Below, piece by piece: positions 3,938-18,684 of a DNA stretch of 24,171 bases. A program made the translations under genes and the position numbers. Numbering within the stretch: the first letter of the stretch is position 1; each line of letters starts with the position of its first letter. Source of the stretch: a virus (taxonomy: Duplodnaviria > Caudoviricetes). The stretch spans positions 1-24,171 of IMG/VR virus record IMGVR_UViG_3300025296_000128, one strand, 5' to 3'. The notes beneath the pieces are model-generated. The model was not told the DNA's origin. It saw only the letters and a list, made by a program, of their open reading frames with translations, and ran no database searches.

Positions 3938-4239
3938 TCTCTACTCGTAAATGCCCACGTTATCGAGTCGCCGGTATCCGAGGCCCGAAACCAGAACGTG
4001 CTACGGCTTACAGAGGCGGGCCTGAAGTCCCTGCGCCACGGAGGCTCCCACGGTTCGAGCCGGTAGCCGAGGTTCGTATCGTTGGACGTGGTGATGGACG
4101 AGTCAGTGCCAACCACGACCACGCCATTGTTCATCGGGTGGGCACGGAACTCCGCTTCCAGCACGCGGTCGTTGTCGGTCGTAATCTGCGTCGCCGTCGT
4201 TACGGTGAACACGTGGGTGCCAACCTCGAAGCGGGCCAT
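3934..4239 (-). CDS. Small hypothetical virion-associated protein, 101 aa
   Basis: ATG is 3 nt after the upstream stop, and its own stop overlaps the next ATG. Beta-rich sequence. Confidence 0.65.
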   Translation of the reverse strand: MARFEVGTHVFTVTTATQITTDNDRVLEAEFRAHPMNNGVVVVGTDSSITTSNDTNLGYRLEPWEPPWRRDFRPASVSRSTFWFRASDTGDSITWAFTSRE

Positions 4240-4242
4240 GAG

Positions 4243-5526
4243 CTAGTTGGCGTCGCTCCAGACAACGCTTGGCCGCGGTGTCTCCATGCGTGCCAGCGTC
4301 ATCTGCGCACGCGCTTCCCGCCGGTCGGCTTCCAGCGCCGCTGCATCCCGCCGGTCGGCAGAGATATTCGTTCGTGCGCGCAGCATACGGGCAACCACGC
4401 TGTCGATGACGAAGTTGCTGTCCGCCTCGCAGATATCCGTGTCGCTGGAGAGCAGCGCAGGCACACGGCGGCCTGTGAGGCGTATCAGGCCAGCGTCGTA
4501 GCCGGGCACGGCAGACTTCTCGAACTCGATGCGCCGCTCGCCCGGCTCTATGTCCCAGAACCTGCGGTGAAGGCGCTTGTAGACCTGCGAGCCGTCACGC
4601 GACGCACGCACCCCGTCCAGCCACACGACGGTCGCTGACGACCCGCCCCAGTCCGAATCGCTCTTCAGCCCGAAAGTGGCAATCGCCGTATCGGACTCAG
4701 GGTTGTTGAGAGCCAGCGAGAACCACGTCCACGTGTCCGCGGTGAGCGCAGGCAGCGATAACTGCTCGGTGCTTGTGTCGTTCAGAAACAGGTCGAGTGT
4801 CGAAGCAGTGGTAGCCAGGTTCGTCTTGGCCCATCCCTCAAGATGCGTCATGCCCGAGAGGTCGATGGCCGTGAACGTATCGTTGATAACCTGCCCGGTA
4901 GAGAATCCGGCAGCAATCGTAATCTTGTTCGATGCCGACCCTTCCCTGAAGTCCTCCGTATCGGCAGCCACCGTCACGTTGGTCTGCGGGTTGGCCATCA
5001 CAGCGTCCAGGTTGCGAACGGTCTTCGACCTGAAGGCAGAGCGGCTCTCAACGCGCTGCACGCCAACCATGTCGCTTGGCAGCGGGAAGTTGTAGATGTC
5101 GCCGCCGAGATGGATGGACGAGTCGGTAACCGGCACGCTGCCCTTGCGGGTAACGTCGGCTATCGACTGGTTAATGAAGTCATGCACCATGATGGGCGAC
5201 ACGTCCGCATCCCACAGCTCGTAGCTGAAGGAAGTGTCCGTCTGGCTCGTGAACCCCACGCTGACGCGCAGCTCGCGGGCATCCGGGTCACTCTCGCTTA
5301 CGCGGCGTATCTCGCCCGAATCGGTAGCCCCGGTGGCCACTACCCATTTGCCACGGTGATTGTCGCGGGAGCCGAACGCGAGCGAGTTGTCGCGTATCGT
5401 GTTCACGCCACCCGTGTCGTCGGCAGTATGCGTGAGCGAGCCGTCAAACGTGTCGAGAGCACCAAGGGCGACACCGATAGACTGGCGTATCTGGAAGCGC
5501 TGGCGCTGCTGCGTCACCGGGGACAT
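4243..5526 (-). CDS. Putative head-tail adaptor / tail tubular A-like protein with an inserted beta-sandwich domain, 427 aa
   Basis: Adaptor-like segments (VHDFINQSIADV...YNFPLPSDMVGVQRVE; IRLTGRRVPALLSSDTD...VIDSVVARML) and position upstream of the nozzle-like gene. TAATG overlap with the HNH gene. Confidence 0.5.
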   Translation of the reverse strand: MSPVTQQRQRFQIRQSIGVALGALDTFDGSLTHTADDTGGVNTIRDNSLAFGSRDNHRGKWVVATGATDSGEIRRVSESDPDARELRVSVGFTSQTDTSFSYELWDADVSPIMVHDFINQSIADVTRKGSVPVTDSSIHLGGDIYNFPLPSDMVGVQRVESRSAFRSKTVRNLDAVMANPQTNVTVAADTEDFREGSASNKITIAAGFSTGQVINDTFTAIDLSGMTHLEGWAKTNLATTASTLDLFLNDTSTEQLSLPALTADTWTWFSLALNNPESDTAIATFGLKSDSDWGGSSATVVWLDGVRASRDGSQVYKRLHRRFWDIEPGERRIEFEKSAVPGYDAGLIRLTGRRVPALLSSDTDICEADSNFVIDSVVARMLRARTNISADRRDAAALEADRREARAQMTLARMETPRPSVVWSDAN

Positions 5527-5981
5527 TAGCTAAGCCACCCCCAGTTTGCCAGTTTGCGGGAAACGATATCGTCGTATTCTCTACCTAGCCGACGATGGCT
5601 ACGAGGAACAGCCGCTGCTTCCGTTCGGATAGCAAGCACTTGTTCGGGCGTTAACTTCGTGTGGGCTGCCGTTGCAGCTGAACCACGGCCCTTACGTTCT
5701 CTGTCTAGACAATTATCACTCTGGGTGCCCAGGCGAAGGTGCTTCGGGTTTACACAGCCGGGGTTGTCACACGTATGCATAACGATTTTGCCATGCAGTC
5801 GCTTCATATCGAATGGGGTGGCGCGATAGGCTGCCCACGCGACTCGGTGCGCCATCTCTTTCTTGCCATATACGGAGAGCGCGCCGTACCCACCGTACCG
5901 CTTCCCACCAAGCCACGGCCAGCAATCGTCCTCGCCTCGGCGCGCGACTTTCTCCCAGAATCGGGATCGTAATGACTTCAA
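5526..5981 (-). CDS. Free-standing HNH homing endonuclease (~151 aa)
   Basis: RFWEKV..CWPWLG..GYG..AHRVAW..VMHTCDNPGCVNPKHLRLGTQSDN..DRERKGR is the classic phage HNH_3-type pattern, followed by KLTPEQVLAIR. The start is re-called to TTG 5981 (TTGA overlap with the upstream stop, GGTGAGG upstream); the track gives 6119. Confidence 0.9.
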   Translation of the reverse strand: MKSLRSRFWEKVARRGEDDCWPWLGGKRYGGYGALSVYGKKEMAHRVAWAAYRATPFDMKRLHGKIVMHTCDNPGCVNPKHLRLGTQSDNCLDRERKGRGSAATAAHTKLTPEQVLAIRTEAAAVPRSHRRLGREYDDIVSRKLANWGWLS

Positions 5982-6391
5982 TCGAGCACCGGCCTCACCA
6001 CCAGCCCGGCTGGCCAGTAGTGGACCGCCCCGCCGCTCTCCGTGCCCCGTATGTCGCCGTGGAATACTATGGTGCTGTCTGAGGCCCACGCGTTCGATTG
6101 CGTGTCCGTAATCTGCCACCGGCAGCGGACGCCGAATCCAAGAGCGGCCGTCCCCATGAGGGTGGAGTCGGTGGCTTCGTCGGTGAGTATCAGGCTGGCG
6201 GACGAATCGGTGGAATCGCGCAGACTGAGGACAAACGTGCCGCCGCCAAGAGCGGCTGAGTCCGAGACGCCGTTCAGCGTCAACTCCGCTACGAGGTCGA
6301 AGTCCGACCCCTCTGGCACGCCGTTGGGGTCTCCCCAGACGCGCCGTGCGTCACGTGTATCAACCCGTATGCGGTGTTCCTGTGCGCTCAT
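5978..6391 (-). CDS. Hypothetical protein, possibly Ig-like structural protein, 137 aa
   Basis: Co-oriented ORF overlapping both neighbours, with an alternating beta-strand pattern. The fold is a guess. Confidence 0.6.
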   Translation of the reverse strand: MSAQEHRIRVDTRDARRVWGDPNGVPEGSDFDLVAELTLNGVSDSAALGGGTFVLSLRDSTDSSASLILTDEATDSTLMGTAALGFGVRCRWQITDTQSNAWASDSTIVFHGDIRGTESGGAVHYWPAGLVVRPVLD

Positions 6392-6794
6392 TGATTAGCG
6401 TCACTCCGTGGAACAGGGTTTTACCGTGGCTGGATGCCCGAACCTGCTTCATCCAGTTACGGATACGCTTCAGTTCCTTCGCGACATCCAACTTCAGGTG
6501 TTTCGGCCAACTGGCAGTATCTGACGCAAGTTTACCAGCCTGCTCCTGATGGCGGACAAACTCGCGCTCCATCGCACCTTCAAACCCGGCAAGCAGCATG
6601 TCCTCTATCTGCGCAGGCGAGGCATCGTCTTCGTGGATTATCTGGAACTGGAACTCGTTCCCGCACAGGCACTTGTAGGTGAACGGCTGGGCAAACGCCT
6701 TCAGGCCGTCTTCGCCCGTCTGCCCCAGGAACGTGGGCAGGCCAAGAGTCAGAGGTTCAGGAATCTTGAAATCCAGAGGCTCAATCATCGCCAC
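6360..6794 (-). CDS. Hypothetical protein with CxC motif, 144 aa
   Basis: AGGAG upstream of a GTG start, 14-nt overlap with the upstream gene. YKCLCGNEF is followed by a helical C-terminal half. Confidence 0.65.
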   Translation of the reverse strand: MAMIEPLDFKIPEPLTLGLPTFLGQTGEDGLKAFAQPFTYKCLCGNEFQFQIIHEDDASPAQIEDMLLAGFEGAMEREFVRHQEQAGKLASDTASWPKHLKLDVAKELKRIRNWMKQVRASSHGKTLFHGVTLINERTGTPHTG

Positions 6795-7743
6795 TGCTCT
6801 CCTGTGGGGCTACTGGCAACTCGCCACGATTGTAGGTATCGAACGGCCCGTCAGGTAGTTTCGTCTGCGGCGCTTCGCTCAACGAAACGTCCACGCCGCC
6901 AAGGTTGTGGTGCATGTTCTGCGCCTCACGCAACGCCGCAAACGACGAGTTGCACTGCTGGATAATCTGCTGAACCGTCGCGTACACGTCGTCCATGCGC
7001 TCCTGCGCTATGCCAACAGCCTCATCAGCCTTGTTGCTCTTGAATATCTCCCGCCATGCCTTCGTTTCCTGGTATGCCGCGATGCCCTCAATTAACTCGT
7101 CGCGCGATAGCTGATGCCCGGTTCGCCACTTCTCCACGCGCTGCTGCGACAGCGTTAGCAGGTCGTCTGCCACGACCTCGCGGGCATAGAGCGCGCCCTT
7201 CAGCAGGCCGCTGGTCTCCGGCACCCAGACCTTGATACCGCGGGCACGCGCCTCACCCAGCCAGTATTCCATGCACGCCTTCTGATGGTAATACTCGTTG
7301 AGCGTTGTCAGGTTGATGCCAAAGACCTTTATCTCGCCAACACGCTCACCGGCATCATGCTGCATGAGGATGAGGCCCATGATGTACGCCATCGTGGACG
7401 TGAAGTAGCTGATGCCAAAGTGGCTAACAACCTCCTGCAGCGGGAAGCGCACACTGTGCGGGATATCGGGGTGCTCTTGCCGCATGTAGACAGGTATCTC
7501 AAGCGCCTTCAGGTACTCAAGGTGCTCGGGCGAGCGACCGAACGAGCCGTCGGGGAAGCCCTTCTCCCAGTGCCAGTCGGACGGGTGCAACTGGAACCAC
7601 ATGGCCGCAGGCTTCGCCAGGAACTGGTGGGCGTTGTTGATAGCCAGTATCTCCGTGGAGTCGGGTTCGTCGTTGATACCCGCCCGCGAGTCCGGCGAGA
7701 AGCCCGCTATCGCGACGACCCGCTTGCGCTTACGCCGAGCCAT
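6781..7743 (-). CDS. Putative nonulosonate/sialyltransferase-like protein (Maf / GT42 Cst-II-like motifs) with C-terminal coiled coil, 320 aa
   Basis: GGGAGG precedes the ATG. The motif order VVAIAGFSP..EILAINNA..YFTSTMAYIMGL..EIKVFGINL..EY parallels the IIAGNGPS..VFRCN..TSG.Y...A...GYKEIYL.GIDF pattern of Cst-II/Maf-type transferases. It lies directly downstream of neuA. The CDS is secure; the function is inferred. Confidence 0.55.
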   Translation of the reverse strand: MARRKRKRVVAIAGFSPDSRAGINDEPDSTEILAINNAHQFLAKPAAMWFQLHPSDWHWEKGFPDGSFGRSPEHLEYLKALEIPVYMRQEHPDIPHSVRFPLQEVVSHFGISYFTSTMAYIMGLILMQHDAGERVGEIKVFGINLTTLNEYYHQKACMEYWLGEARARGIKVWVPETSGLLKGALYAREVVADDLLTLSQQRVEKWRTGHQLSRDELIEGIAAYQETKAWREIFKSNKADEAVGIAQERMDDVYATVQQIIQQCNSSFAALREAQNMHHNLGGVDVSLSEAPQTKLPDGPFDTYNRGELPVAPQESSGDD

Positions 7744-8479
7744 CGGAGCCTCCCTTCCGAACAGGGGGGAGGAGGTCAGGGTCTTCAGCTACGAGCATCT
7801 CTGCAGCCTTCCAGTCATGCTCGTCATTGATGTCGAAGCCCTCATGGCCCTCCGTAAAGAACGGAGCCACAACCTCCCCTGCCTGGTTGCCATACCTCTT
7901 TATGGTATCTGTCCATGCAATTTCCATAGATGCGTTCTGCACCCATACCTCTGGCAGCGCGGCCATCTGGCTGCTGTGCCACGGATACTCCGGCTGCAAC
8001 AGCAGCGGTGCAATCAGGTTGGTCTGCGGATAGTGCAGCCACATCTTGCCGGGGTGCTGTTTCACCCGTTCCACCGCCCGCAGGCTGTCTATGGCCCTGC
8101 CAGCCTCGGAAAACTCCGCGTATGCGCGGCGGATAGTGTCGGCCGTGCGAAATGGCGACGTGGGTCGCAAGAGAGCAAAGGCATCGAAAGACGCCGAAGC
8201 TCCTATGGCATGTCGGAGCCATTCAATATCAGGCGAAGTGTCGGTTGCGTACTCCTCTGGCCGCTTGATAGTGGTGGCACCGTAGTCTCTAGCTATCTTC
8301 AGGATTTCGTCGCTGTCGGACGAAACGACGATGTCCTTGAATAAGCCACTCTCGTCTGCGGCCTGAATCGTCCACGCCATGAGCGGCTTGCCGCCAAGCA
8401 GCCGGATATTTTTGTCCTTAACCCTCTTGGACTCGGCCCTCGCTGGAATAAGGGCAACGCAGTTAAACGCCTCAGTCAC
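7730..8479 (-). CDS. neuA: Acylneuraminate cytidylyltransferase (CMP-nonulosonate synthetase), 249 aa
   Basis: ALIPARAESKRVKDKNIRLLGGKPLMAWTI, IVVSSDS, LLRPTSPFR and FDINDEHD are CTP_transf_3/NeuA family motifs. Confidence 0.93.
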   Translation of the reverse strand: MTEAFNCVALIPARAESKRVKDKNIRLLGGKPLMAWTIQAADESGLFKDIVVSSDSDEILKIARDYGATTIKRPEEYATDTSPDIEWLRHAIGASASFDAFALLRPTSPFRTADTIRRAYAEFSEAGRAIDSLRAVERVKQHPGKMWLHYPQTNLIAPLLLQPEYPWHSSQMAALPEVWVQNASMEIAWTDTIKRYGNQAGEVVAPFFTEGHEGFDINDEHDWKAAEMLVAEDPDLLPPVRKGGSDGSA

Positions 8480-9533
8480 CGACCGCCGCCTTCACGTCCA
8501 GCCACTCGCAGTCGGCATACCTGCTCACGTCGTGTGCCAGCGTCTCACCAACCAGCCTGCTGGCGTGGTATGGAGGGATGCCGTTACCCGGACACATGGG
8601 TATCAGGTCGGCGAACGTCACGACGTGGCCTGCTGGCAGACTGGTCTTCCAGAGCAGCTTCTTACGCCGCTCTTCCGCAGGCGCAAGCTCGCGGTGGTCG
8701 GGGAACTTGTCGCCGCTGCCCAGCGCCTCACGCGTCGTGTCCAGCGCGCGCCTGAAATCACCAAGCATGGACGGCGTGAGCGAGAAGGCGTTGTCGGTGC
8801 CCTTCCACTCGCGGTCGTTGGTGTAGTGGAACTCGAAGATGCGGGCACCCAGCGCGTACGCCGCAATCCCCGGTATCCAGTCAGGGTGGTGGCACGAGAG
8901 GCCAACAACGATAGAGGGATACCACTTATGGTACTTTTCAAGTACCCGCACATTCAGGATGTCGGCAGGCGACGGGTAGATGCACGAGCACTGCATCAGG
9001 GCCACCTGCTCATTATGCCCTGCCGCCGCCACCATAGCCCGCACCACGTCGTCCATCGTGCTGCCGCCGGTCGAGAGGATTACTGGCTTCCCGTACTTCG
9101 CCACCTGCGCAATCAGCGGCGTATTCGTGATGTCGCCAGAGGCTATCTTGAAGGCTGGCACGTCGAGGTCTCTTAGCTGGTCAGCCGAGCGGCTATCGAA
9201 AGGCGTGCTGAAGGCCGTGATACCCACCTTGCGGCAGTAGGCGAACAGCTCCCCCCACTCGGTCTCTGTCGGCTCCAGAGCCTCGCGATGCAGGCCGTAA
9301 CTCTCCGCCATCGCGTGTGGGGAATCGAAGCGTGCGCTGAACATCGCAGGCGAGTAGACCTCGCGGGGCGTGCGCGTCTGGAACTTGACGGCAGAAGCGC
9401 CGTTGGCCTGCGCCGTGCGCACCATCGCACGCGCCCTTGCCATGTCGCCACCGTGGTTGGCGGATATCTCGGCGACGATGTAGGCGGGTTCGTCATCCGC
9501 TATGCGGGTGCCGTCAATCGCTATCTCTCTCAT
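8472..9533 (-). CDS. neuB: N-acetylneuraminate synthase-family (nonulosonic acid synthase) with C-terminal SAF/antifreeze-like domain, 353 aa
   Basis: IVAEISANHGGD, AVKFQT, STPFD, KIASGD, PVILSTG, C..YP, GLSCH, EFHYT, D..FSL and the C-terminal PGNGIPP are all present. Confidence 0.95.
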   Translation of the reverse strand: MREIAIDGTRIADDEPAYIVAEISANHGGDMARARAMVRTAQANGASAVKFQTRTPREVYSPAMFSARFDSPHAMAESYGLHREALEPTETEWGELFAYCRKVGITAFSTPFDSRSADQLRDLDVPAFKIASGDITNTPLIAQVAKYGKPVILSTGGSTMDDVVRAMVAAAGHNEQVALMQCSCIYPSPADILNVRVLEKYHKWYPSIVVGLSCHHPDWIPGIAAYALGARIFEFHYTNDREWKGTDNAFSLTPSMLGDFRRALDTTREALGSGDKFPDHRELAPAEERRKKLLWKTSLPAGHVVTFADLIPMCPGNGIPPYHASRLVGETLAHDVSRYADCEWLDVKAAVGD

Positions 9534-10264
9534 GCGTCCTCCTTCACGAAGAGATGGTTGAAGACTTCAATGCCTGACTGCTTTGAGCGCGGCCAGCTAT
9601 CCTTCTCGGTCAGCATCGCCAGCCGCAACGCTGACATGCACTGTTCGTAGTCCTCAGACAGATGGTTCAGCTCAATCATCACGCTGCGCAATGCCGGGGA
9701 GGCAAGCGCAAGGGTTGCGCCTGCAAGCACGCGGCCCTCGTAGCCATCCACGTCAATCTTTACATGGCTGGGAAGAGGGATGTCCCACATGGCGAGGTCG
9801 TCCATCTGGACGGACAGGATGGCCTGGGACACCGCCCAGTTCCCCTCGTCGCCTTCCTTGCCAATCTTGTGGCTCGCAGCCCCCGGCTCGGCCTGCATCA
9901 TGTACATCGTTTCTATCCGGCGCGTGTCCCACAGGGCTACCGGCAGGGGGGTTATGTCAAACTTCGTATCCGGCTGCGTACAGTCCTCGTTGTTCAGGTT
10001 GATGTTCTGCGCGAGCCGACTGAAGTTCATGGCCTCCGGCTCGAACGCGTATACCTTCGCACCGCGCGAGGCGGCAATCAGGCCGTACCCGCCCGTGTTG
10101 GCCCCGACGTCGTAGAACACGTCGCCTTCCCCAACGTACTCGTCAATCCATCCGACGGTCTCCGGCTCCTTGAAATGGGGTCTGACCCGCCACATCTTCT
10201 CCCACTGGGAATGTACGACGATACGAATATTGGCTTTCGGGTAATCAAGCAGTTCAAGGCCCAA
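9530..10264 (-). CDS. FkbM-family SAM-dependent methyltransferase, 244 aa
   Basis: FYDVGANTG.YGL, VYAFEP...NF..L..NI.LN, HVKIDVDGYE..VL.G and VMIEL. TTG start after GGAGG; ATGA overlap with neuB. Confidence 0.9.
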   Translation of the reverse strand: MGLELLDYPKANIRIVVHSQWEKMWRVRPHFKEPETVGWIDEYVGEGDVFYDVGANTGGYGLIAASRGAKVYAFEPEAMNFSRLAQNINLNNEDCTQPDTKFDITPLPVALWDTRRIETMYMMQAEPGAASHKIGKEGDEGNWAVSQAILSVQMDDLAMWDIPLPSHVKIDVDGYEGRVLAGATLALASPALRSVMIELNHLSEDYEQCMSALRLAMLTEKDSWPRSKQSGIEVFNHLFVKEDA

Positions 10265-10352
10265 CCGCAGCCTCCGGCATCGCGGCGGCTGCGTTTACGG
10301 CCGTGGGGATGTGCTCCGGGATAGGCCCGGTAACACAGGTATTACAAGCCAC
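10254..10352 (-). CDS. Putative 32-aa leader peptide / small ORF (MACNTCVTGPIPEHIPTAVNAAAAMPEAAVGP)
   Basis: GTG at 10352 with AAGGAGG 4 nt upstream. It is the 3' end of track ORF 10254..10640 and overlaps the FkbM start by 11 nt. Confidence 0.45.
   Translation of the reverse strand: MACNTCVTGPIPEHIPTAVNAAAAMPEAAVGP
10266..10293 (-). promoter_or_regulatory. Hairpin sequestering the FkbM Shine-Dalgarno
   Basis: The mRNA reads CGCAGCC-G-CCG-cgatgc-CGG-A-GGCTGCG, a 7+3 bp stem whose 3' arm contains the GGAGG just upstream of the TTG. Confidence 0.4.
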
Positions 10353-10387
10353 GAGTCCTCCTTCCGCGGCTCCTGAGAGCGATATCT

Positions 10388-10422
10388 GCACGGGCGCGGG
10401 AGCCGAAGCCCCCGCCCCATGC
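10388..10422 (-). terminator. Strong GC hairpin with C(UUCG)G tetraloop; terminator-like or mRNA-stabilising, no U-tract
   Basis: The mRNA reads GCATGGGGCGGGGGC-TTCG-GCTCCCGCGCCCGTGC, ~15 bp with G-U pairs and one bulge, ~20 nt after the stop of the decoration-like gene. Confidence 0.6.
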
Positions 10423-10441
10423 CTGTTACGCCATGACCTTT

Positions 10442-11188
10442 TTAGGGGTCTATCGTCAGTTTGACGAGCTGGAAGTCGGTTGATATGGCAGGAATCAATG
10501 CCGCCACACCGATGCTCTCGTTGTCCTGAGCCGAGCTGCTGTCGAGCAGTACGCCAGCACCGTCGGCGCTGGTCTCTGCTGGACCTACCTGGTCGCCGAC
10601 AACTGCCACGCCCTGCATCAGTACCGCTGCGTATCCCCACGTCTGAAGCCAGCCGTAGTAATCGGCTGTCATCGTCGTAGGAGAAACACCGGCAGCGACG
10701 TTGGTTACGCCTCCGGAGGGCTGGACAATGACCTGGTCGTACATGCTGTACGTGAGTCCGACCAGCGAACTCGTTGTCAGTGCTATCGACAGCCCATCCT
10801 CTTCATCGAGGGTAACAACGAGGCCCGCTGCACTCGACACTGCGGTGTTGGACTTAACGTCATACGTTGTTCCTTCACCTGCGCCGTCGTTGACGTACAT
10901 CAGACCTTCTTTGTACTGGTCCTTAGTTACTGTCAACGATGTCCCAACGGTAACCGTGGTGGCCCCTACCGCAGCAGCTTCCGACACTGCGAGGTCCATG
11001 TCGTGGGCAGCTACCGTAGCGGGTGCCTGGGCAATCCTGCCAGCCGCTATCTCGGTGCCCCCGACCAGGCAGTACCTGAACACCTTGCCGTTTTCGAGCG
11101 CCATGCGGGTGCCCAGCTTGTGTCGCTGGGTAGAAGTCAGCTTCTTCTCCCAGCCCTTTTTTCCGTAAATCGTATTCGGGAACGACAT
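10442..11188 (-). CDS. Putative capsid decoration/cement or minor head protein, 248 aa
   Basis: A/G/V/T-rich beta protein close behind the major capsid gene. Motifs KLGTRM...GKVFRYC and YYGWLQTWG are typical of proteins at this position. AAGGGAG upstream. Confidence 0.6.
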   Translation of the reverse strand: MSFPNTIYGKKGWEKKLTSTQRHKLGTRMALENGKVFRYCLVGGTEIAAGRIAQAPATVAAHDMDLAVSEAAAVGATTVTVGTSLTVTKDQYKEGLMYVNDGAGEGTTYDVKSNTAVSSAAGLVVTLDEEDGLSIALTTSSLVGLTYSMYDQVIVQPSGGVTNVAAGVSPTTMTADYYGWLQTWGYAAVLMQGVAVVGDQVGPAETSADGAGVLLDSSSAQDNESIGVAALIPAISTDFQLVKLTIDP

Positions 11189-11229
11189 TAGTTTTCAGAA
11201 CTCCCTTACAGGTTTCTTATACACCCTGC

Positions 11230-11271
11230 GATTGGCCGACGTAGATTGTTGCCGCATAGCCTCGGCCAATC
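11230..11271. repeat. Perfect 10-bp inverted repeat (GATTGGCCGA...TCGGCCAATC), 22-nt spacer, intergenic
   Basis: Arms at 11230-11239 and 11262-11271 within the 90-nt intergenic gap. Confidence 0.75.
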
Positions 11272-11278
11272 ATTACAG

Positions 11279-11860
11279 CTATGCTTTCGCCCTCTGCTTT
11301 CGGGTCTTCTTTGGCCGCACTCCTATGTCGTGCTCCCTGCCCATGTGAATCCTGAGCGACTTCTTCTGGGATTCCAGCTCAGTCGCCCTGGGAGTCCATT
11401 CATCACAGGCAGGACACACGAGGAGCGCCGCGGGTGGCGGGGGCGTAGCGGAGGACTCTACCATTGCCTCCGCCACCGTTGGCCTAGTTTCTTCGCCATC
11501 GCCTTCCTGTGCCCTGCAGGCACGCCACGCTCGTAGAACAGACTCGCGATTCCGGTCGTTCGTCTCATGCCCTGCGTCCATACGACGGTAGAGACTGAGA
11601 TGGTCGCGAGTTGGCTCCGTGCCAACGGGCCACGGGAACCAGCCGTTACCAAAAGCCTTCGACAGAAGGCCCATCTTGTCCTGCCCCGGATACCGTTCAG
11701 TCGCCACCGTGCCAGATTCCTTCGTCATCTTGCCGTCAACATTCAGAGACGGCCTGTGACGCCAGAGCGTGATGTAGTTCTCGTTGATGACGATTGGCTC
11801 AATGAGCGAGCCGCCGGAGCCGGGTTGTGTTTTTGGCTTATCGAAGTCGATGGTCGTCAC
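11279..11860 (-). CDS. Hypothetical protein with C-terminal C2H2-type zinc finger and basic tail (~193 aa)
   Basis: The start is re-called to GTG 11860 after TAAGGA (track: 11917). LVCPACD...SLRIHMGREH is followed by RPKKTRKQRAKA. Confidence 0.7.
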   Translation of the reverse strand: MTTIDFDKPKTQPGSGGSLIEPIVINENYITLWRHRPSLNVDGKMTKESGTVATERYPGQDKMGLLSKAFGNGWFPWPVGTEPTRDHLSLYRRMDAGHETNDRNRESVLRAWRACRAQEGDGEETRPTVAEAMVESSATPPPPAALLVCPACDEWTPRATELESQKKSLRIHMGREHDIGVRPKKTRKQRAKA

Positions 11861-11870
11861 GAATGAGTCC

Positions 11871-12758
11871 TTAACCGGTCGAAGCGGGGGCCGTCGCGTC
11901 GTAGAGCATGGGCGCACCGTGCTGGTCGTCCAACTCGAAGACGTTGTAGCGGGCCACCCAGTTCAACTCCCATGCACGACGGGATGCGTCACGCTCGCGC
12001 TCGATGGCGAATGACTTCGACTCAAGCGCAATCATCGCATCCTGCTGCGCGATAACCCCGGTTATGTCACCCGACGAGTCAATCGTCAGGTTCCCGTCCT
12101 CGAAGAAGTTCACCCCGTTGTAGCGGTGGCGGAAGAAGTTCTTCAGCACCGCACGCTGGAGGTCTTCGGGCGGATTCAGGTTTGCACCGCCCACCACGGA
12201 AACCGAAGTGAGCAGTGAGTGGAAGTTGTGCGGGTGAAGCACGATGTACGACGGGTCGAAAGGCTCCGTCTGGCTTGCACCTGAACCGCCGCGTGCCTTG
12301 ATGATGGCACCCGACATTGCGCTCAGGGTAGCCGTAGAACCAGACGAACCGAAAGCGGTTCCGCCGTTCAGGTTCGGGTACAGAGCAGTCGTGTCGTTGT
12401 CCTGCTTCTTTGTGAAGCCGTCACCCGCCTGTCTGCCAACAATCGAGAAGATGGGCGTCGAGCCGTGCTGTGCCACCAACTTGTCGGTCACGATTACCTT
12501 CGCGCCGACCTCTTTCACCGTGAGGTTAGTCGTGGTGATGTTGATGGTCTGCTCGTCCGTCATGTCCTCACCGTCAGTGAGGTCAGAGAACGTGAACTGG
12601 CCGACCTTCGGCACCTCCGCGTCCTTGTGGCCGCGTGGGAGCCGCATCTTCTCAATCAAAGCGTATGCGGGAGCCTTGTGCTCCTGCACATAGCGAGTGG
12701 CAGCAACCATTGTTTTCTGCGCGTTTTCGGCCTGCGCTGCCGTTGCTGTTGCAGCCAT
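11871..12758 (-). CDS. Major capsid protein (HK97-fold presumed), 295 aa
   Basis: Position after the scaffold and size. It shows typical capsid-like segments (VPKVG..TFSDLTDGEDM, GAKVIVTDKL, YIVLHP, IERERDASRRAWEL..V.RY). AAAGGTAGG upstream. Confidence 0.8.
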   Translation of the reverse strand: MAATATAAQAENAQKTMVAATRYVQEHKAPAYALIEKMRLPRGHKDAEVPKVGQFTFSDLTDGEDMTDEQTINITTTNLTVKEVGAKVIVTDKLVAQHGSTPIFSIVGRQAGDGFTKKQDNDTTALYPNLNGGTAFGSSGSTATLSAMSGAIIKARGGSGASQTEPFDPSYIVLHPHNFHSLLTSVSVVGGANLNPPEDLQRAVLKNFFRHRYNGVNFFEDGNLTIDSSGDITGVIAQQDAMIALESKSFAIERERDASRRAWELNWVARYNVFELDDQHGAPMLYDATAPASTG

Positions 12759-12775
12759 TTACCTACCTTTACTCA

Positions 12776-13663
12776 TTACCCCCGCCACTCCCGTTCGGCG
12801 ACTCTGCGCTCTCCGGCGCTCATCTCCGACCAGTCCTTGTCCTGGAGGCTTGTAAGCAGGGATGCGTGGTCAGCGCCCGCTGGGGCGGCTGACTCCTGTG
12901 CTTGAAGACTTGTTTCGGGTGTCTCCGCGGGAACCCGGCTCTGGGTGACGTTCTGCCTGCCAAGACGCTGTGCAAGCTGCTCCATTTCGGCAGGCGATTG
13001 CGTGCTAAAGAGCAGGGACTTGTCTGCATCTGTAACGCCAAATTGGGCTGCGTACTGGTCTACAGCTACTATCTTTCCAGCGTGGTCGAGCATCTGGTCG
13101 CTGGTCTGGACGGCAGCACGTGCCCTTATAAGCTCGGCCTGCGTCTCGAAGTACCTGCGCACCTGCCCGGCGTTCGCGGGCGAGCGGACAGTCTCTCGGG
13201 CTGCCTCTTCACCCATCTGCGCCGCATAGGCTTGTTCCTGTCGGGCAAGTTCAGCCTCGGTAAAAGCCGAAACCTGCTGCTGCTCGACCGCAGCCTGCTG
13301 CTGCTGGCCTGTCGCTGCCACCTGCTGTTCCAGTGCCGCAATGCGCGTGTCGTAGGTACTCTGCGCCTGCCGCCACTCGGGCGACTGGCTCAGGTCTACG
13401 CCTGCGGGTTTCGCCGCGGGAACCTCGGTCGTCTCTACAGGCGCAGGCGCTTCCCCTTCTGCAACTCCGGTAGCAACCGACCCGGCCTCTGCGCCTTCCG
13501 ACCCTCGCGCCGCAGACTCACCCGCCCGCTCGGCAGCGGCAGCCGCATCAGCGGCCTCGCCTACCTCGGGGGGAGTAGAGTCTTCCAGCTCAAGTGTCTC
13601 GGCGAGCTGCTGAATCTGATGCTCTTCGGTTGCAGGAGTGGTCGTCTGCTGCTCAGAAACCAC
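12776..13663 (-). CDS. Putative capsid scaffolding protein, 295 aa
   Basis: Acidic, A/E/Q-rich disordered N-terminus plus coiled coil, directly upstream of the capsid gene. AAGGAGG precedes the GTG. Confidence 0.7.
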   Translation of the reverse strand: MVSEQQTTTPATEEHQIQQLAETLELEDSTPPEVGEAADAAAAAERAGESAARGSEGAEAGSVATGVAEGEAPAPVETTEVPAAKPAGVDLSQSPEWRQAQSTYDTRIAALEQQVAATGQQQQAAVEQQQVSAFTEAELARQEQAYAAQMGEEAARETVRSPANAGQVRRYFETQAELIRARAAVQTSDQMLDHAGKIVAVDQYAAQFGVTDADKSLLFSTQSPAEMEQLAQRLGRQNVTQSRVPAETPETSLQAQESAAPAGADHASLLTSLQDKDWSEMSAGERRVAEREWRG

Positions 13664-13710
13664 CGCTATCCTCCTTGGTTGATTGGATATGTTACTACGT
13701 TATTACCTGT

Positions 13711-16700
13711 TTACTCGAATCTAGCGAAGTGCCTGGGGTCAGCGGCAGAGCGTCTACCCTTGGCGACAGGCCCTCCACGGCCCTGCGTACCAGTGGGACC
13801 GCCGAAAGCCGTGGTGCCTGTGCCGAAGAGCGCCGTTGCGCCGATAGCGCCACCAAGCAAGCCCTGCTCTTCAACGCCTTCGAGAATATCGACGATGATA
13901 AGCGGCACCAGTTGACCGAACAACTCGCGCTGTTCCGCCGTTACCTCTACCCCATACTCTTCGGTCAACAAGCCAGAGGCTTCATCAAGGTCTTCGCCAA
14001 TGAAGGTTTCCTGGAATACCCGGTTAGCCACGATGGACGGCAGGCCCGGTGCCAGCTTGGACCGCAAGAACCGGATTATCGTGTCTGAAGGCGGCTGCGG
14101 CACAGTAGCCCCTGCAGCCTTGCCGGTAACCGTCTTCCGACTACCACTGACAGCCTGAGCCAGATAGCGAGCGATAGGTTGCATACCGCCCCAGAACTCC
14201 ACGCGTGACGGGCCAACTCGTACCTTGCCGAAGTCCGACGAGCGAGGATTCAACTCAACCTCGGCGGCATTTGACGCTTTGATGAGACCAAGAATTGCCA
14301 TCCCCGCACCGAAGAACTTCAGCAGGTCGCCGACGACCATCTTGCGGATTACCGGGTCGCGCTCAAAGATGCTCAGAGGGGCCTGAATCCGTGACATTAC
14401 CAATCGGGGTGACCAGAAGGCAGCGTTCAACTCAGGGCCGATACTCTCAAACTTCCCTAGCCGACCGCGGCCCGTAGCCACGTTCAGCCAGCGGTTCATG
14501 CGCCGCACGCGGTCAGGAGTGACCTTGATACCTGCACTCCGCCAGTTGTCCAGCGTGTTCGTGGCCACGTCGAACCGTAGTTTGTTCAGATAGGTAGCAA
14601 AGCCCCGTTCAGACGCCTTTATGCCTGCCCCCAGCACAGGGATGCGCTGAAGGATGCGCCCCATGAACGCCTCTTCTCTGAGCGCCAGCCCAATCGTGCC
14701 TTCTACGTCGTGAAGGAACAGCCCGCCTTCATTCACCAAACGGTCGAAGTCAGGGTGAGCCACAATGTTAGCGTTGATGCGCCTAAACTCCGCAGGGTCG
14801 AAGGCGGCGCGGAACATCGGTACGAAACTCTTCACGAACTCCCGCGGGTGGCCAGCAGATAGAAGGATGCCCTGCCTGAGAGGGGCCGAGAAGTCGAACG
14901 ACGACCGCAGAACCTGCGGAATGTTCAGAACCTCAATGACGTTCTCTCTGACCCGTTGACTGAGCGGCCGCAGGTCACGTGCCGCGCGCACCAGTTCAGG
15001 GCCGAACCGCTCACGAAGCAGCCGTAACTCGGATGGCGTTGGGATGTGCCCCTGTAGCAGATTCGTGAGTGCCGTATCGGCATTGAGCTTCGTGAAGAAG
15101 CGGTCATCGGTGCCCCAGATACGTCCGAACAGAGAGTCGAGGTCGTCGTCGGTGAACTGCGGCCTCAGTGGCTCAAACTGCCCTAGCGCACGCTCGCCAC
15201 CAAGCTGCCCGCGGGCTGCAGGGCCTGCCCCCCGCGGCGAGACTGCTTCGGCAGCGCCTGCTGCTCGCGCTGTGATGCCCCGCAGTTCCTCGGCCCGTAA
15301 TCGTATTGTCTCCTCGGTCGCTACTTCTGCTTGCCTCAGTAACCTGGTCAACTTCTCAGTGGCAAGGACGCCCTGTGTCTCTGCAGACACCGGCAAGTTA
15401 TTCCGAACGGCAACGAGAGCGTCAATATCTGCTTCTGAGAACCAGCGCCCTGTAACTAAGCCTTCGGCCTCACGTACTGGAGGCGGTGGATTATTCGCCG
15501 CTTTCAGCACATCAATCTGCTCGGGCGCGGCAATCCCCGTGTCGAAAGCCGTGGCTACTCGCGGCCGTTCCGGGATGCCCCCGACAGCCTCGCGGGCCGC
15601 AGCAGCCCCGGTGGGAGGCCGTATGGGGGCGGTGGGAGCAACATCAGCAGCCCGTGTGGCCTGTCTGGCGGGAGAGATATCAAACTTCCCTGTCCGTATC
15701 AATGCCTCACGCACCAAAGACATCTGGTTACCAGGGTCTGCGGTTAGGTCTTTGGCTCCGACCGCAAACGACTTGTTCTTTAGGGTATTTTTGATGCCAA
15801 ATTCTCTTGCAAAGTTTTCTGCCTTTGCCTTTGACGGAATCCCTCTAGTTGACGTAGAACCTAAGTACCTCCACCCCAGCTCTATATCCTTAAATGGCCC
15901 CTTTGCTTGCCACGCCACCGTCCAGAAATTCCCTTCACCATGCACCTCAAATAGGTCTTTGGCAGCGATGTCCACCGCCTCTTCAAAGGTTGCCTCTGGC
16001 GTATTTTTGATGGTATCCAGTAGTTGCTGTGCCCGTACAGCAGGGACTACCTCACCAGCCCCCCTAGCAGCAGCGGCAGCGGGAGGCTGCGTGGGGGCGG
16101 TGGTGGCGGCCTGCTGCGCCTCGGGCAACGCGCGCGGGACTGGCCCTATCCGCGCCTCAGCCTCAATGCCAAAGAGCGCACGACGAGTCTCCGCCGCTAT
16201 CTGGTCAATGTCAGCAGCAACTTCAGCGGCAATTTGCGGGTTTTCTGTATCTACAAGCAATCTGTCGCCAAGCCGACCGCCAACAGACTGATCACCAACA
16301 ATCTCAAAGGGAGATGTTACCGATTTTCCTCCATGACGCTCAGCGATAACGTCCCAAAGTAGAGAGTTTTCGCGATCGGCGGCCCCAAGAGTTCTAGCCG
16401 GATTACCTATACGTGCAATCGCATTTAGGGACGCTCGACTCTCAGCAACAATCTCAGGCGTTAGGTTAACCCCCCGCCTCCGCATCTCCTTCGTCAGGTC
16501 AGCGATTTCGTCTCCAAGTGCTTCCCCAATGATTTCAGCCCGTATTTCGTCTTCGGGAAGCTCTTCAATTTTTATCCCTTCCCGCCTAACCGTTTCCGCT
16601 CCTTCATCAGCCGCCTGCCGCACACGAGCAATCGACTGGATAATGTCATCGGGCAGAATTGGGTCGCCACCACCCGGCAGCCCCGCCGCACCCTCCGGCA

Positions 16701-18684
16701 GTCCTGCGCCGCGGGCGGCCCCGGCCCCCGGCTCCGGTCCTGCTGCAAATCCTAGCCGCTCTGATATAGCTGGACTCAACTGCTGGCGCTCGCGTCCGAG
16801 TACCAGGTTCCGGTAAACCCGCTCTGCGTGGTCTCCTCTCCCGATAGTCCGAAGCCAGTTATAGAAACCAACGGCAATCTCACGGATGCGACGAGCCGTT
16901 CGCGTGAAGACGCCACCCTGCGGAACGGTTCGCTCGGCTACATCACGCATCCCCCTGCTGGTAATCGCTTCGGCAAACCACTCCTCGAAAGCCGAGAGGC
17001 GATGGCCGAGTTCTGGCTTAACGCCTACGGTAGCCCCCCTGCTAACACGACGAGAGGCGGCTGCTGCTACTTCGCGCTGGTACTGCCGCCTCAAGAGAGC
17101 CAGGTCTTCTGGGGGCACGTACCGTTGAAGACTGTGAGATAACTCGTGTATGAGCACTTCATCGGGCCAGAAGGCAGAGTTAGCGATTACCTTGCGGTAA
17201 AGAGTCGCCAGCCCCAGTGCCGGGTCGTAAGTACCGAGCAGGCCGCGCGAGCCAACGACCTCGCCCCGCAAAAATGCCAGGTCGCCTGCCGTTGGCTCGC
17301 TCCTGATAGATAGCCCAACGTCTTCCAGAAGTTCATCCGGGAGAGCACGGATAAACGCCTCACCGTAGTCAGTTTCACCGGCGATGCCGGGAGTGCCAAG
17401 ATTGCCTTCAAGCTGCAAGCGGTCAATCAGAGCGGCTCGACCGCGGGCGATATTCTCTCCGCGTGCCATGCGCTTGATGTTTGTCAGGCCCGGCTGTGGC
17501 CCCCTCCACGGCTCCTTCTGAAGTGACAGGTCATCTCCAACTACCCTCGTGATACGCCTGCCGCTCCACGTTTCGTAGCTGACTCGCGTACCCGGCGTTG
17601 TAAGGACAGTATCAACTTCGCCTTCTGCAAGACTGTCAAGATTGACCACGCGTCCTGTTCGAGACGGCTGTCGAGGCGTCGGTAGAAGTGGTCGGTCCGG
17701 TAACGTGACAGCACCGGGAGAAATCTCAGCCCGGAGCCTCTCGACACTCCCGCGCACAGCCGTACCAGCCCGTCGTCCTGCGGCCCCAACTGCCCCCTGA
17801 GTAGCTTCTCTAGTTATCGCTTTTGCGGCTGCTCCGACTGCTCCAGCTCCTCGTACAGCAGCTTTAGTGGCACCTAGCGGAGGAATATTTAACGGGTTAA
17901 ACGCCTCCGCCCCGGCCTCTGCGCCACCGAGAGTCCACAACGCCTCACCCGGTTCCTGAAGGAAGGGGATACCGGGAATAATAGGCATCTGAAAGAACTC
18001 GGGACTCGTTCGCTGCAACGCGCGCGCCTCGGGCGTCTGAGGGTCTATCTCTCCCAGCCTGGGACCGAGTGCCCGTTCTTCTTCAACTGCTTGCAGAAAC
18101 TCAGGAGGAGCGCCTGCCCAGAAGCCCTGGCCGGTCGCTGCGGCATAGGCAGCAAAGGTATCCGCACCCAGCCGTTGCGCGAACTCCCCCAGCCTTCCCA
18201 GCCTGTATGTAAAAGGCTTACCCTGTTGTTCCTCAACGGAGGGAATGGCGACCTGCCCCTCTACTGGAGGAGGAGTCGGCGCAGTTCTGAGTGCGTAAAA
18301 GTCTTCAAGCTCCTCCGTGCTGGCCCAGGTGGGAGGCGTAAGGCCACTCTCCAGGTACTTCTGCGTAATCAGGCGTCGCCGCTCTAAGTCCATCGGGCTG
18401 GGAGTCGCCAGCAGCCCCATGCCTTGTGGAATTGGCTCTGGCCGGGCTACGGGAGTTGTAATAAGAGGAGTCTCTATTCCGAGTTGACCTGGCTGGGCTA
18501 CGGGGGTCGTCCGCGGCCCTGCGCCGGCAACCTGGCCCAGGCTGGCGCGTTCCTCTTCAAAGGCAGCGGCTGCCTGCGTTATGAAGTCAGAAAAGAGGCG
18601 CGGGTTGGCAACGCGCACCTGTGGCCCGAACGACTGCCGTGCGACGCGGTTCAGGCGGTCAATCTCACCAGCCTGATTGACCAT
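13711..18684 (-). CDS. Large polyvalent / internal virion (DNA ejection-like) protein with zincin-like HExxH domain, 1657 aa
   Basis: Long, mostly helical A/R/E/G-rich ORF. LGTYDP...EVLIHELSH...EEWFAE resembles the metallopeptidase-like domains of phage polyvalent proteins. There is a hydrophobic segment near the C-terminus. Confidence 0.65.
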   Translation of the reverse strand: MVNQAGEIDRLNRVARQSFGPQVRVANPRLFSDFITQAAAAFEEERASLGQVAGAGPRTTPVAQPGQLGIETPLITTPVARPEPIPQGMGLLATPSPMDLERRRLITQKYLESGLTPPTWASTEELEDFYALRTAPTPPPVEGQVAIPSVEEQQGKPFTYRLGRLGEFAQRLGADTFAAYAAATGQGFWAGAPPEFLQAVEEERALGPRLGEIDPQTPEARALQRTSPEFFQMPIIPGIPFLQEPGEALWTLGGAEAGAEAFNPLNIPPLGATKAAVRGAGAVGAAAKAITREATQGAVGAAGRRAGTAVRGSVERLRAEISPGAVTLPDRPLLPTPRQPSRTGRVVNLDSLAEGEVDTVLTTPGTRVSYETWSGRRITRVVGDDLSLQKEPWRGPQPGLTNIKRMARGENIARGRAALIDRLQLEGNLGTPGIAGETDYGEAFIRALPDELLEDVGLSIRSEPTAGDLAFLRGEVVGSRGLLGTYDPALGLATLYRKVIANSAFWPDEVLIHELSHSLQRYVPPEDLALLRRQYQREVAAAASRRVSRGATVGVKPELGHRLSAFEEWFAEAITSRGMRDVAERTVPQGGVFTRTARRIREIAVGFYNWLRTIGRGDHAERVYRNLVLGRERQQLSPAISERLGFAAGPEPGAGAARGAGLPEGAAGLPGGGDPILPDDIIQSIARVRQAADEGAETVRREGIKIEELPEDEIRAEIIGEALGDEIADLTKEMRRRGVNLTPEIVAESRASLNAIARIGNPARTLGAADRENSLLWDVIAERHGGKSVTSPFEIVGDQSVGGRLGDRLLVDTENPQIAAEVAADIDQIAAETRRALFGIEAEARIGPVPRALPEAQQAATTAPTQPPAAAAARGAGEVVPAVRAQQLLDTIKNTPEATFEEAVDIAAKDLFEVHGEGNFWTVAWQAKGPFKDIELGWRYLGSTSTRGIPSKAKAENFAREFGIKNTLKNKSFAVGAKDLTADPGNQMSLVREALIRTGKFDISPARQATRAADVAPTAPIRPPTGAAAAREAVGGIPERPRVATAFDTGIAAPEQIDVLKAANNPPPPVREAEGLVTGRWFSEADIDALVAVRNNLPVSAETQGVLATEKLTRLLRQAEVATEETIRLRAEELRGITARAAGAAEAVSPRGAGPAARGQLGGERALGQFEPLRPQFTDDDLDSLFGRIWGTDDRFFTKLNADTALTNLLQGHIPTPSELRLLRERFGPELVRAARDLRPLSQRVRENVIEVLNIPQVLRSSFDFSAPLRQGILLSAGHPREFVKSFVPMFRAAFDPAEFRRINANIVAHPDFDRLVNEGGLFLHDVEGTIGLALREEAFMGRILQRIPVLGAGIKASERGFATYLNKLRFDVATNTLDNWRSAGIKVTPDRVRRMNRWLNVATGRGRLGKFESIGPELNAAFWSPRLVMSRIQAPLSIFERDPVIRKMVVGDLLKFFGAGMAILGLIKASNAAEVELNPRSSDFGKVRVGPSRVEFWGGMQPIARYLAQAVSGSRKTVTGKAAGATVPQPPSDTIIRFLRSKLAPGLPSIVANRVFQETFIGEDLDEASGLLTEEYGVEVTAEQRELFGQLVPLIIVDILEGVEEQGLLGGAIGATALFGTGTTAFGGPTGTQGRGGPVAKGRRSAADPRHFARFE

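Follow-up and report, generated by a model that had tools for sequence, protein, structure and literature searches.

A four-gene cassette in the head module of marine phages predicted to make, activate and transfer a nonulosonate

We analysed a 24,171-nucleotide stretch of DNA from an uncultured marine tailed phage (IMG/VR record IMGVR_UViG_3300025296_000128 over its entire length, positions 1 to 24,171; the whole stretch is called the window here), which carries among its structural genes a cassette of four genes: a NeuB-family nonulosonate synthase, a NeuA-type cytidine monophosphate (CMP)-nonulosonate synthetase, a 320-amino-acid (aa) predicted transferase and an FkbM-family methyltransferase. 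The cassette holds up as a genuine, ancient module under selection, which related phages carry, in one slot of the head module, either as a unit or not at all. Its gene families, predicted fold and gene context make it reasonably probable that a phage-made nonulosonate is transferred, late and in the cytoplasm, to virion proteins. A wider proposition is offered tentatively, as possible rather than probable: marine Dehalococcoidia phages may make 2-keto-3-deoxynonulosonic acid (KDN), or a 9-phosphorylated or methylated analogue, with NeuB and NeuA alone and O-link it to capsid or fibre proteins through a Maf/GT42-like family of thousands, self-sialylated virions then being a common, swappable trait of ocean phages. 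The cassette consists of:

9530..10264, minus strand: FkbM-family S-adenosylmethionine (SAM) methyltransferase gene, 244 aa, TTG start (TIGR01444, PF05050, phrog_8156)
8472..9533, minus strand: NeuB-family nonulosonate synthase gene, 353 aa (PF03102), with a sugar-6-phosphate-type signature (E134D, R314C)
7730..8479, minus strand: NeuA-type CMP-nonulosonate synthetase gene, 249 aa (PF02348)
6781..7743, minus strand: predicted nonulosonate transferase gene, 320 aa, with a GT42/Maf-like Rossmann domain (about 8-190) and a long helical hairpin (193-280)

All four open reading frames (ORFs) are intact, and their coordinates agree with the successive overlaps of 4, 8 and 14 nt described in an earlier, first-pass annotation of this DNA; a 144-aa gene overlaps the stop of the 320-aa gene by a further 14 nt. 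That annotation had named an assembly chimera or a recent capture of host genes as what would undo its reading. The cassette is not a chimera, because a single 10.4-kb contig from sequencing run X14 (not marked as a source) joins positions 4200-11283 across all of it, and the GC content of the cassette (0.585-0.635) equals that of the remainder of the window in a flat profile. At least half of the stretch's words occur in 19 of 23 listed sequencing runs, all marine, 7 of them being possible sources; no RNA run was among those listed.

The synthase belongs to the NeuB family (PF03102, 218 bits). Its residues E22, K50, Q52, K129, S132, S154, S213, H215, E234, H236 and D247 align with Neisseria NeuB; among 30 members of its clade, E22 is kept in 27 and the other metal, phosphoenolpyruvate (PEP) and catalytic residues in all 30 (roles as given in the available text of PMC8208679 and PMC11339185). 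The window protein carries D134, C184 and C314 (E134D, with R314 lost). It did not reach the cut-off for bacterial N-acetylneuraminic acid (Neu5Ac) synthase, TIGR03569 (240.5 against 399.65 bits, with E134 and R314 absent), or that for PseI, TIGR03586 (216.5 against 340.25 bits). The combination of D134 and no R314 recurs in 55 of 59 phage NeuB rows, the other four being incomplete sequences. In the available text of PMC8208679, E134D is found in archaeal and eukaryotic synthases and in 29% of environmental NeuBs, and R314 loss in eukaryotic synthases; a link to a phosphorylated substrate is a suggestion there, not proven. The accessible part of PMC11339185 gives the arginine as absent from mammalian 9-phosphate synthases.

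In quick trees the phage NeuB clade groups with the D134/no-R314 set (SH-aLRT 99-100), and four NeuBs from bacterial contexts (L205, L209, L212 and L197) fall inside it. Across 80 GTDB loci, a KdsC-like haloacid dehalogenase (HAD) motif lay within 5 kb of 5/10 D134/no-R314 genes versus 0/69 R314 genes, and a NeuC motif near 0/10 versus 15/69; both are sequence motifs typical of these enzymes, and the five HAD neighbours were confirmed by NCBIfam. The HAD motif was near none of the 59 phage NeuB rows, as against 3/3 top Dehalococcoidia-class rows and 5/10 of the GTDB D134/no-R314 genes, and an adjacent HAD phosphatase is also absent beside the bacterial members of the phage clade. NeuC was not found in five cassette records, one of them 91% complete. 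Because NeuB has E134D and no R314, and because no NeuC was found, a KDN-type sugar made from mannose-6-phosphate would be the simplest donor, but the 9-phosphatase is missing from the cassette. As a separate observation, the L197 NeuB (9971-11056), nested in the phage clade, stands in a locus where no phage genes were recognised, on a contig of 122 kb, a possible phage-to-host transfer.

The NeuA protein matched PF02348 with 72.9 bits and stayed below the PseF equivalog cut-off of NCBIfam. Its best PDB matches are the CMP-Neu5Ac synthetases 6ifd (E 7e-21) and 1eyr (E 2e-18), and it is nearer PDB NeuA (E 7e-21) than KdsB (E 9e-6). The methyltransferase scored 63.1 bits against TIGR01444 (cut-off 37.7), with PF05050 and phrog_8156 also matched; it is an optional member of the cassette, present in 7/10 cassette clusters, and is predicted to methylate the sugar.

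The 320-aa protein matched no Pfam, PHROG or NCBIfam family, one coiled-coil Pfam match falling below cut-off. A word-indexed search returned 4 relatives and a full profile search 3,745 clusters at E<=0.001; its Atlas neighbours lie in clusters that are 94-100% viral. IMG/VR loci numbered 0 with the single protein, 1 with a 5-sequence query and 78 with a 16-sequence alignment, and in GenBank phages the searches reached one relative of the transferase and, for NeuB, three distant records.

The AlphaFold model (132 sequences; pLDDT 90.8, pTM 0.81) shows a Rossmann-type domain and, after it, a long hairpin of helices. The top seven Foldseek rows were all CstII of GT42 (E 6.5e-4 to 2.4e-3, prob 1.00), with thiamine pyrophosphokinase (TPK) and hydroxymethyldihydropterin pyrophosphokinase (HPPK) lower. 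VIA-align gave Z 10.1 for CstI (root-mean-square deviation [rmsd] 3.5, 154 aligned) and Z 10.4 for Maf (rmsd 15.5, 216 aligned), and the hairpin drew many coiled-coil rows. On the Foldseek ranking and the CstI alignment the Rossmann domain is of the CstII type; because the Z scores of GT42/Maf and of the pyrophosphokinases are close, fold alone cannot fix function. The family profile's best PDB sequence matches are likewise CstII, weakly (E 0.026), and none of the 132 family members matched a glycosyltransferase Pfam. Near-invariant residues include G14, H53, G142, E150, G163 and Y186 (E150 at 99%; S116 at 83%); H53 and H74 are the only histidine columns conserved at >=60%, whereas GT42 enzymes have a C-terminal catalytic histidine. 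An MptE-like cluster, the nearest named one in the Atlas (16% of members, score 0.80), and a Maf profile (MAF_flag10/DUF115) are leads only, and a GT29-like protein from a jumbo phage fell outside the transferase profile (probability 0.8%). No hydrophobic segment in the four cassette proteins exceeded a KD19 of 1.59, which fits a cytoplasmic acceptor. We infer that the 320-aa protein works like a GT42/Maf enzyme, being a member of neither family by profile. Thus, in the make-activate-transfer-methylate scheme of the first-pass annotation, the NeuB and NeuA families, a sialyltransferase/Maf-type fold and a conserved linked unit stand, and methylation is reduced to an option.

The slot that holds the cassette lies among these genes of the head-tail run:

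10442..11188, minus strand: 248-aa beta-rich post-capsid protein, upstream border of the slot; decoration or head-fibre candidate and candidate acceptor
11871..12758, minus strand: major capsid protein (PF25209), lineage marker and candidate acceptor
6360..6794, minus strand: 144-aa conserved lineage gene, directly 3' of the 248-aa gene in cassette-free relatives
5978..6391, minus strand: 137-aa Ser/Thr-rich beta-sandwich protein, BppU_N-like as a lead; candidate acceptor
4243..5526, minus strand: 427-aa conserved protein, downstream border of the slot; tail or neck by position only, no family match
5526-6119, minus strand: HNH endonuclease, overlapping the 137-aa gene
13711-18684, minus strand: 1657-aa protein, no family match; conserved in the lineage, probably an internal virion protein by position

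The gene order is terminase, 717 aa, 1657 aa, 295 aa, capsid, 212 aa, 248 aa and cassette, followed by 144 aa, 137 aa, HNH, 427 aa, 101 aa, 650 aa and, cut short by the window edge, a fibre-like gene. Within this structural region only the terminase (phrog_2), the capsid (PF25209, 32.4 bits, cut-off 27) and the HNH endonuclease have family support; all other structural labels are positional, and the downstream tail-type genes are unannotated. Of the earlier placement between capsid or decoration genes and tail genes, the capsid side is therefore borne out, while "decoration" for the 248-aa protein found no fold match and "tail" is a matter of position.

A capsid search in IMG/VR gave 342 relatives, of which 80 were kept. 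Our pool comprised loci with a strong, near-full capsid match (112 loci, 46 clusters at 95% identity); 30 clusters span the slot from the 248-aa to the 427-aa gene, and 16 are too short. Seven of the 30 carry transferase, NeuB, NeuA and FkbM, three lack FkbM only, 20 have none of the four, and none is partial; after clustering at 85% identity the split is 8 with the cassette versus 7 without. The search proposed in the first-pass annotation, for the NeuB-NeuA-transferase set next to capsid genes in relatives, thus found it complete in 10/30 clusters and in the same slot. L175 is the window's own record and falls with L001 and L255 in the window's cluster, so these are not independent.

An alignment of 30 close NeuBs led to 15 viral loci, with the capsid and 248-aa genes upstream in all 15; NeuB identity across the viral loci of the clade is 48-56%, apart from the identical L001. 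Cassette genes occur in 13/13 informative rows of the clade to which the window belongs in the capsid tree (16 rows, support 100/99), and in a second clade cassette-bearing L011, L275 and L213 interleave with empty L287, L288 and L298. Five relatives (three near-complete) that are empty beside the 248-aa gene had no transferase or NeuB anywhere in the record, in a genome-wide search that detected 5/5 cassette records as positive control. The 248-aa, 144-aa and 427-aa genes are conserved in relatives, the 427-aa gene in all full-span ones and the 248-aa gene in both cassette-bearing and cassette-free ones.

Median dN/dS was 0.15 for FkbM (5 pairs), 0.11 for NeuB (14), 0.15 for NeuA (3) and 0.07 for the transferase (3), with 0.09 for the capsid (24); the pairs are few, non-independent and need not include the window. 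These ratios indicate purifying selection on all four cassette genes. Identity to the window's NeuB is 38-41% for the best Dehalococcoidia-class NeuBs and 43% for the best GTDB match (7/64 parts scanned). Recent capture was rejected on the fixed slot across deep divergence, the purifying selection and the phage-like GC.

Outside the lineage, we collected 69 transferase loci in 54 clusters. A NeuA-like gene lies in the fetched flank of 13/54. The scan took in 93 of 117 listed neighbours, drawn from 29/35 representatives with at least 12 kb: a head, packaging, connector or virion neighbour is present in 27/29 loci and a major head protein in 20/29. The tie to the head module is family-wide, and the donor pathway is often absent nearby. 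A protein with >=20% Ser/Thr stands between capsid and transferase in 14/19 outside loci, a count made without a control and not used as support; these proteins have no significant homology to the window's.

For the acceptor there are several candidates. The 248-aa protein is all-beta (S+T 0.19), and its model (pLDDT 72) had no PDB fold match at E<=0.001. Compared with empty phages, cassette-bearing ones have more Ser/Thr in the 427-aa protein (p 0.011) and less in the 650-aa one (p 0.004), kinship being ignored. The 137-aa protein has an S+T of 0.19-0.27 in 26 loci, all cassette-bearing with none cassette-free, and all of one clade; its similarity to BppU_N-containing models (Atlas TM 0.65-0.70) is below the Atlas naming bar.

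The host search covered one class, Dehalococcoidia. The capsid profile matched 15/401 genomes, one strongly (G122, 315 bits), and that match is a syntenic prophage of the lineage in a 1.36-Mb contig (C4, about 784000-817000; L353, L354, L356), flanked by metabolic genes of the host and carrying a tyrosine integrase next to tRNA-Arg. This prophage lacks the cassette. The transferase profile found no real homologue in the 401 genomes, only one weak coiled-coil match. The window phage's host is thus probably in Dehalococcoidia.

In the mechanism we propose, NeuB would condense PEP and a hexose phosphate from the host, mannose-6-phosphate in the simplest case, to KDN-9-phosphate or a close analogue; the family assignment is firm and the substrate presumptive. 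Because the cassette encodes no phosphatase, a host HAD enzyme would then have to remove the phosphate, or the clade would use another substrate. NeuA, again secure as to family, would convert the nonulosonate to its CMP-sugar, and the GT42/Maf-like enzyme, by its predicted fold, would act in the cytoplasm and place the sugar, Maf-style, on Ser/Thr residues of a head or fibre protein or on a glycan that this protein carries. FkbM may finally O-methylate the sugar. The likely purpose would be a charged coat that alters adsorption or shields the particle from decay or grazing; antibody access, listed earlier among the possible functions of such a coat, is irrelevant for a marine phage with probable Dehalococcoidia hosts.

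Several points weigh against this reading. Activity and sugar are predictions from sequence, fold and gene context, and the acceptor proteins named are candidates. The TM-scores of the Foldseek CstII matches are 0.32-0.45; the Rossmann fold is shared with HPPK 8sd5 and SteA (Z 9.2) and TPK (Z 8.9), about 1 Z from GT42; and 0/132 family members match PF06002 (E<=0.01) or PF01973. The cassette has neither a phosphatase nor NeuC, and the Ser/Thr content of the 248-aa protein and of the capsid is equal with and without it (p 0.45, 0.67). Sampling was biased, cassette loci coming partly from targeted searches and 80/342 capsid matches having been kept. Two fragments, L084 and L201, stood outside the count because their capsid match is weak or absent; both have NeuB, and no NeuA occurs in the 1.6-1.8 kb that remain up to the end of the contig. 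NeuB is in the fetched flank of only 1/54 outside clusters. Lastly, the lineage includes a prophage, which keeps host-surface conversion in play.

Such conversion, the alternative already named in the first-pass annotation, would put the nonulosonate on a host glycan, S-layer or pilin, with a superinfection block or an altered surface as the result. The integrated relative, with its integrase at tRNA-Arg, is in keeping with it, as are the action of GT42 enzymes on glycans and the NeuB genes that Dehalococcoidia-class genomes themselves own (29/401 at E<=1e-60). We disfavour it and hold it to be improbable: the cassette genes are overlap-coupled inside the head-tail run, a scan of 6000-14000 gave 0 sigma-70-type promoter sites versus 2.0 expected (a weak test for this host), the cassette has no membrane segment, flippase or transporter, the transferase family adjoins head genes in unrelated phages (27/29), and the sole prophage found lacks the cassette. 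It is similarly unlikely that the 320-aa protein is another enzyme of the same fold (an MptE/TPK-like kinase, a nucleotide hydrolase or a sugar-modifying enzyme) or a structural protein, NeuB and NeuA serving a different transferase. GT42 came first by both Foldseek and sequence profile, the 320-aa gene strictly co-occurs with NeuB and NeuA in full-span loci, and another transferase was not found in the 18/36 scanned ORFs of the 91%-complete relative G006. These count against the Z scores of 8.9-9.2 for HPPK, SteA and TPK, the MptE-like lead, the want of Pfam glycosyltransferase matches in the family, and the many outside loci without NeuA or NeuB.

Two further explanations carry less weight. 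The sugar might go onto phage DNA or injected or internal proteins as anti-defence, or its synthesis might deplete the host's pools of CMP-sugar or PEP; DNA hypermodification by phage glycosyltransferases is described in the available text of PMC12619734, and some large proteins of the lineage are putatively internal to the virion. We hold this to be quite doubtful, as the cassette belongs to the structural arm, G006 has its replication-type genes on the opposite arm, and the scanned ORFs yielded no base-modifying enzyme. Most remote is neutral cargo, that is, recently captured host lipopolysaccharide or capsule genes without a phage function. The bacterial-context NeuBs in the phage clade are the point in its favour; it is largely refuted by the purifying selection, the fixed slot across deep divergence and the phage-like GC, and by the low identity of the best Dehalococcoidia-class and GTDB NeuBs. 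We therefore retain transfer to virion proteins as the preferred reading.

The nearest known system is virion glycosylation in mycobacteriophages, whose primary study is said to be that of Freeman et al. 2023. Both cases concern a tailed phage with its own glycosyltransferases and virion proteins as targets (proposed targets here). The window phage differs in adding donor synthesis and activation (NeuB, NeuA), a GT42/Maf-like enzyme and a predicted acidic nine-carbon sugar, and is known from its genes alone. In the accessible text of PMC12363180 and PMC12619734, capsid and tail-tube proteins are modified in Che8, Corndog and Myrna. Maf (PF01973; PDB 5mu5) is related to CstII and transfers to Ser/Thr, according to the available part of bioRxiv 10.1101/2020.06.03.131540. 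Maf is cytoplasmic and binds its donor with a GT42-like domain that precedes a helical part, a layout that the 320-aa protein may share; both genes adjoin nonulosonate biosynthesis genes and the gene of a structural polymer protein. Maf differs in having 632 aa and a flagellar rather than a phage locus, the window protein has no PF01973 match, and the rmsd over both domains is 15.5. Any counterpart of Maf D324/E415 in the 320-aa protein is at most putative. Residues 4-183 resemble Campylobacter CstII/CstI (CAZy GT42; PDB 1ro7, 2p56) most closely in structure (Z 10.1, rmsd 3.5), and the CstII segment SGVYM...GIDFY aligns with TMAYIM...GINL. Identity is 13-18%, PF06002 is not matched, and the window protein adds the long hairpin and conserves H53/E150, apparently in place of a C-terminal His; CstII acts on lipo-oligosaccharide, unlike the target proposed here.

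Bacterial KDN-9-phosphate/Neu5Ac-9-phosphate operons (NeuB, KdsC-like HAD and NeuA) share D134, no R314 and no NeuC nearby, and form the sister group; the phage clade differs in its linker (ERRKK versus KMGKK) and in having no adjacent HAD phosphatase. Large-phage glycan islands (Kyanoviridae MH319754; jumbo LR756508) also have a phage NeuB beside glycosyltransferase-like genes, but that NeuB is 26-30% identical and the islands lie in 149-484 kb genomes, whereas this is a compact head-module cassette in a phage of ~40 kb. In LR756508 (L005 9247-14068), NeuB is flanked, by eye, by four GT29-type sialyltransferase-like genes.

The first-pass annotation knew of no sialylated-virion system in tailed phages, and our literature search, with subscription papers and supplements lying largely outside it, yielded no description of a nonulosonate on the virion of such a phage, though virome annotation tables in supplements may list genes of this kind; in the literature found, virion glycosylation in tailed phages is described for mycobacteriophages only. 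The available text of PMC3877843 lists neuB and neuA in a virome table. If the reading is right, a self-supplied nonulosonate coat would bring marine phages into the range of virion glycosylation and assign a role to an unannotated capsid-adjacent family of at least 3,745 protein clusters, with possible effects on virion decay, adsorption, grazing and marine organic-matter chemistry. The natural pairs with and without the cassette and the soluble three-enzyme pathway make it testable in E. coli, and a compact protein sialyltransferase would be useful for glyco-engineering.

Some variants of the slot were also seen. L303 (12167-14222), counted as empty, holds a different glycan cassette there: an unclassified 306-aa protein and a methyltransferase fused to a UDP-glucose/GDP-mannose dehydrogenase domain. 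In L010, L092, L219-L222, L019 and L181 the interval from the 248-aa gene to FkbM holds a second transferase paralogue, shorter than the first, the pair possibly being priming and extending enzymes. L011 and L275 have NeuBs 97% identical and a 538-aa fibre-like gene in common, with capsids in different clusters and empty sisters between them, which suggests exchange of cassette and fibre as a block. The cassette-bearing record G007 has a TatC-family gene (L332 8532-9425). Strains in runs X14, X15 and X16 have a 403-nt insertion at the neuA 3' end (window 7755-7766), with no match in IMG/VR, and lack 5515-5977, which makes the HNH endonuclease a mobile insert.

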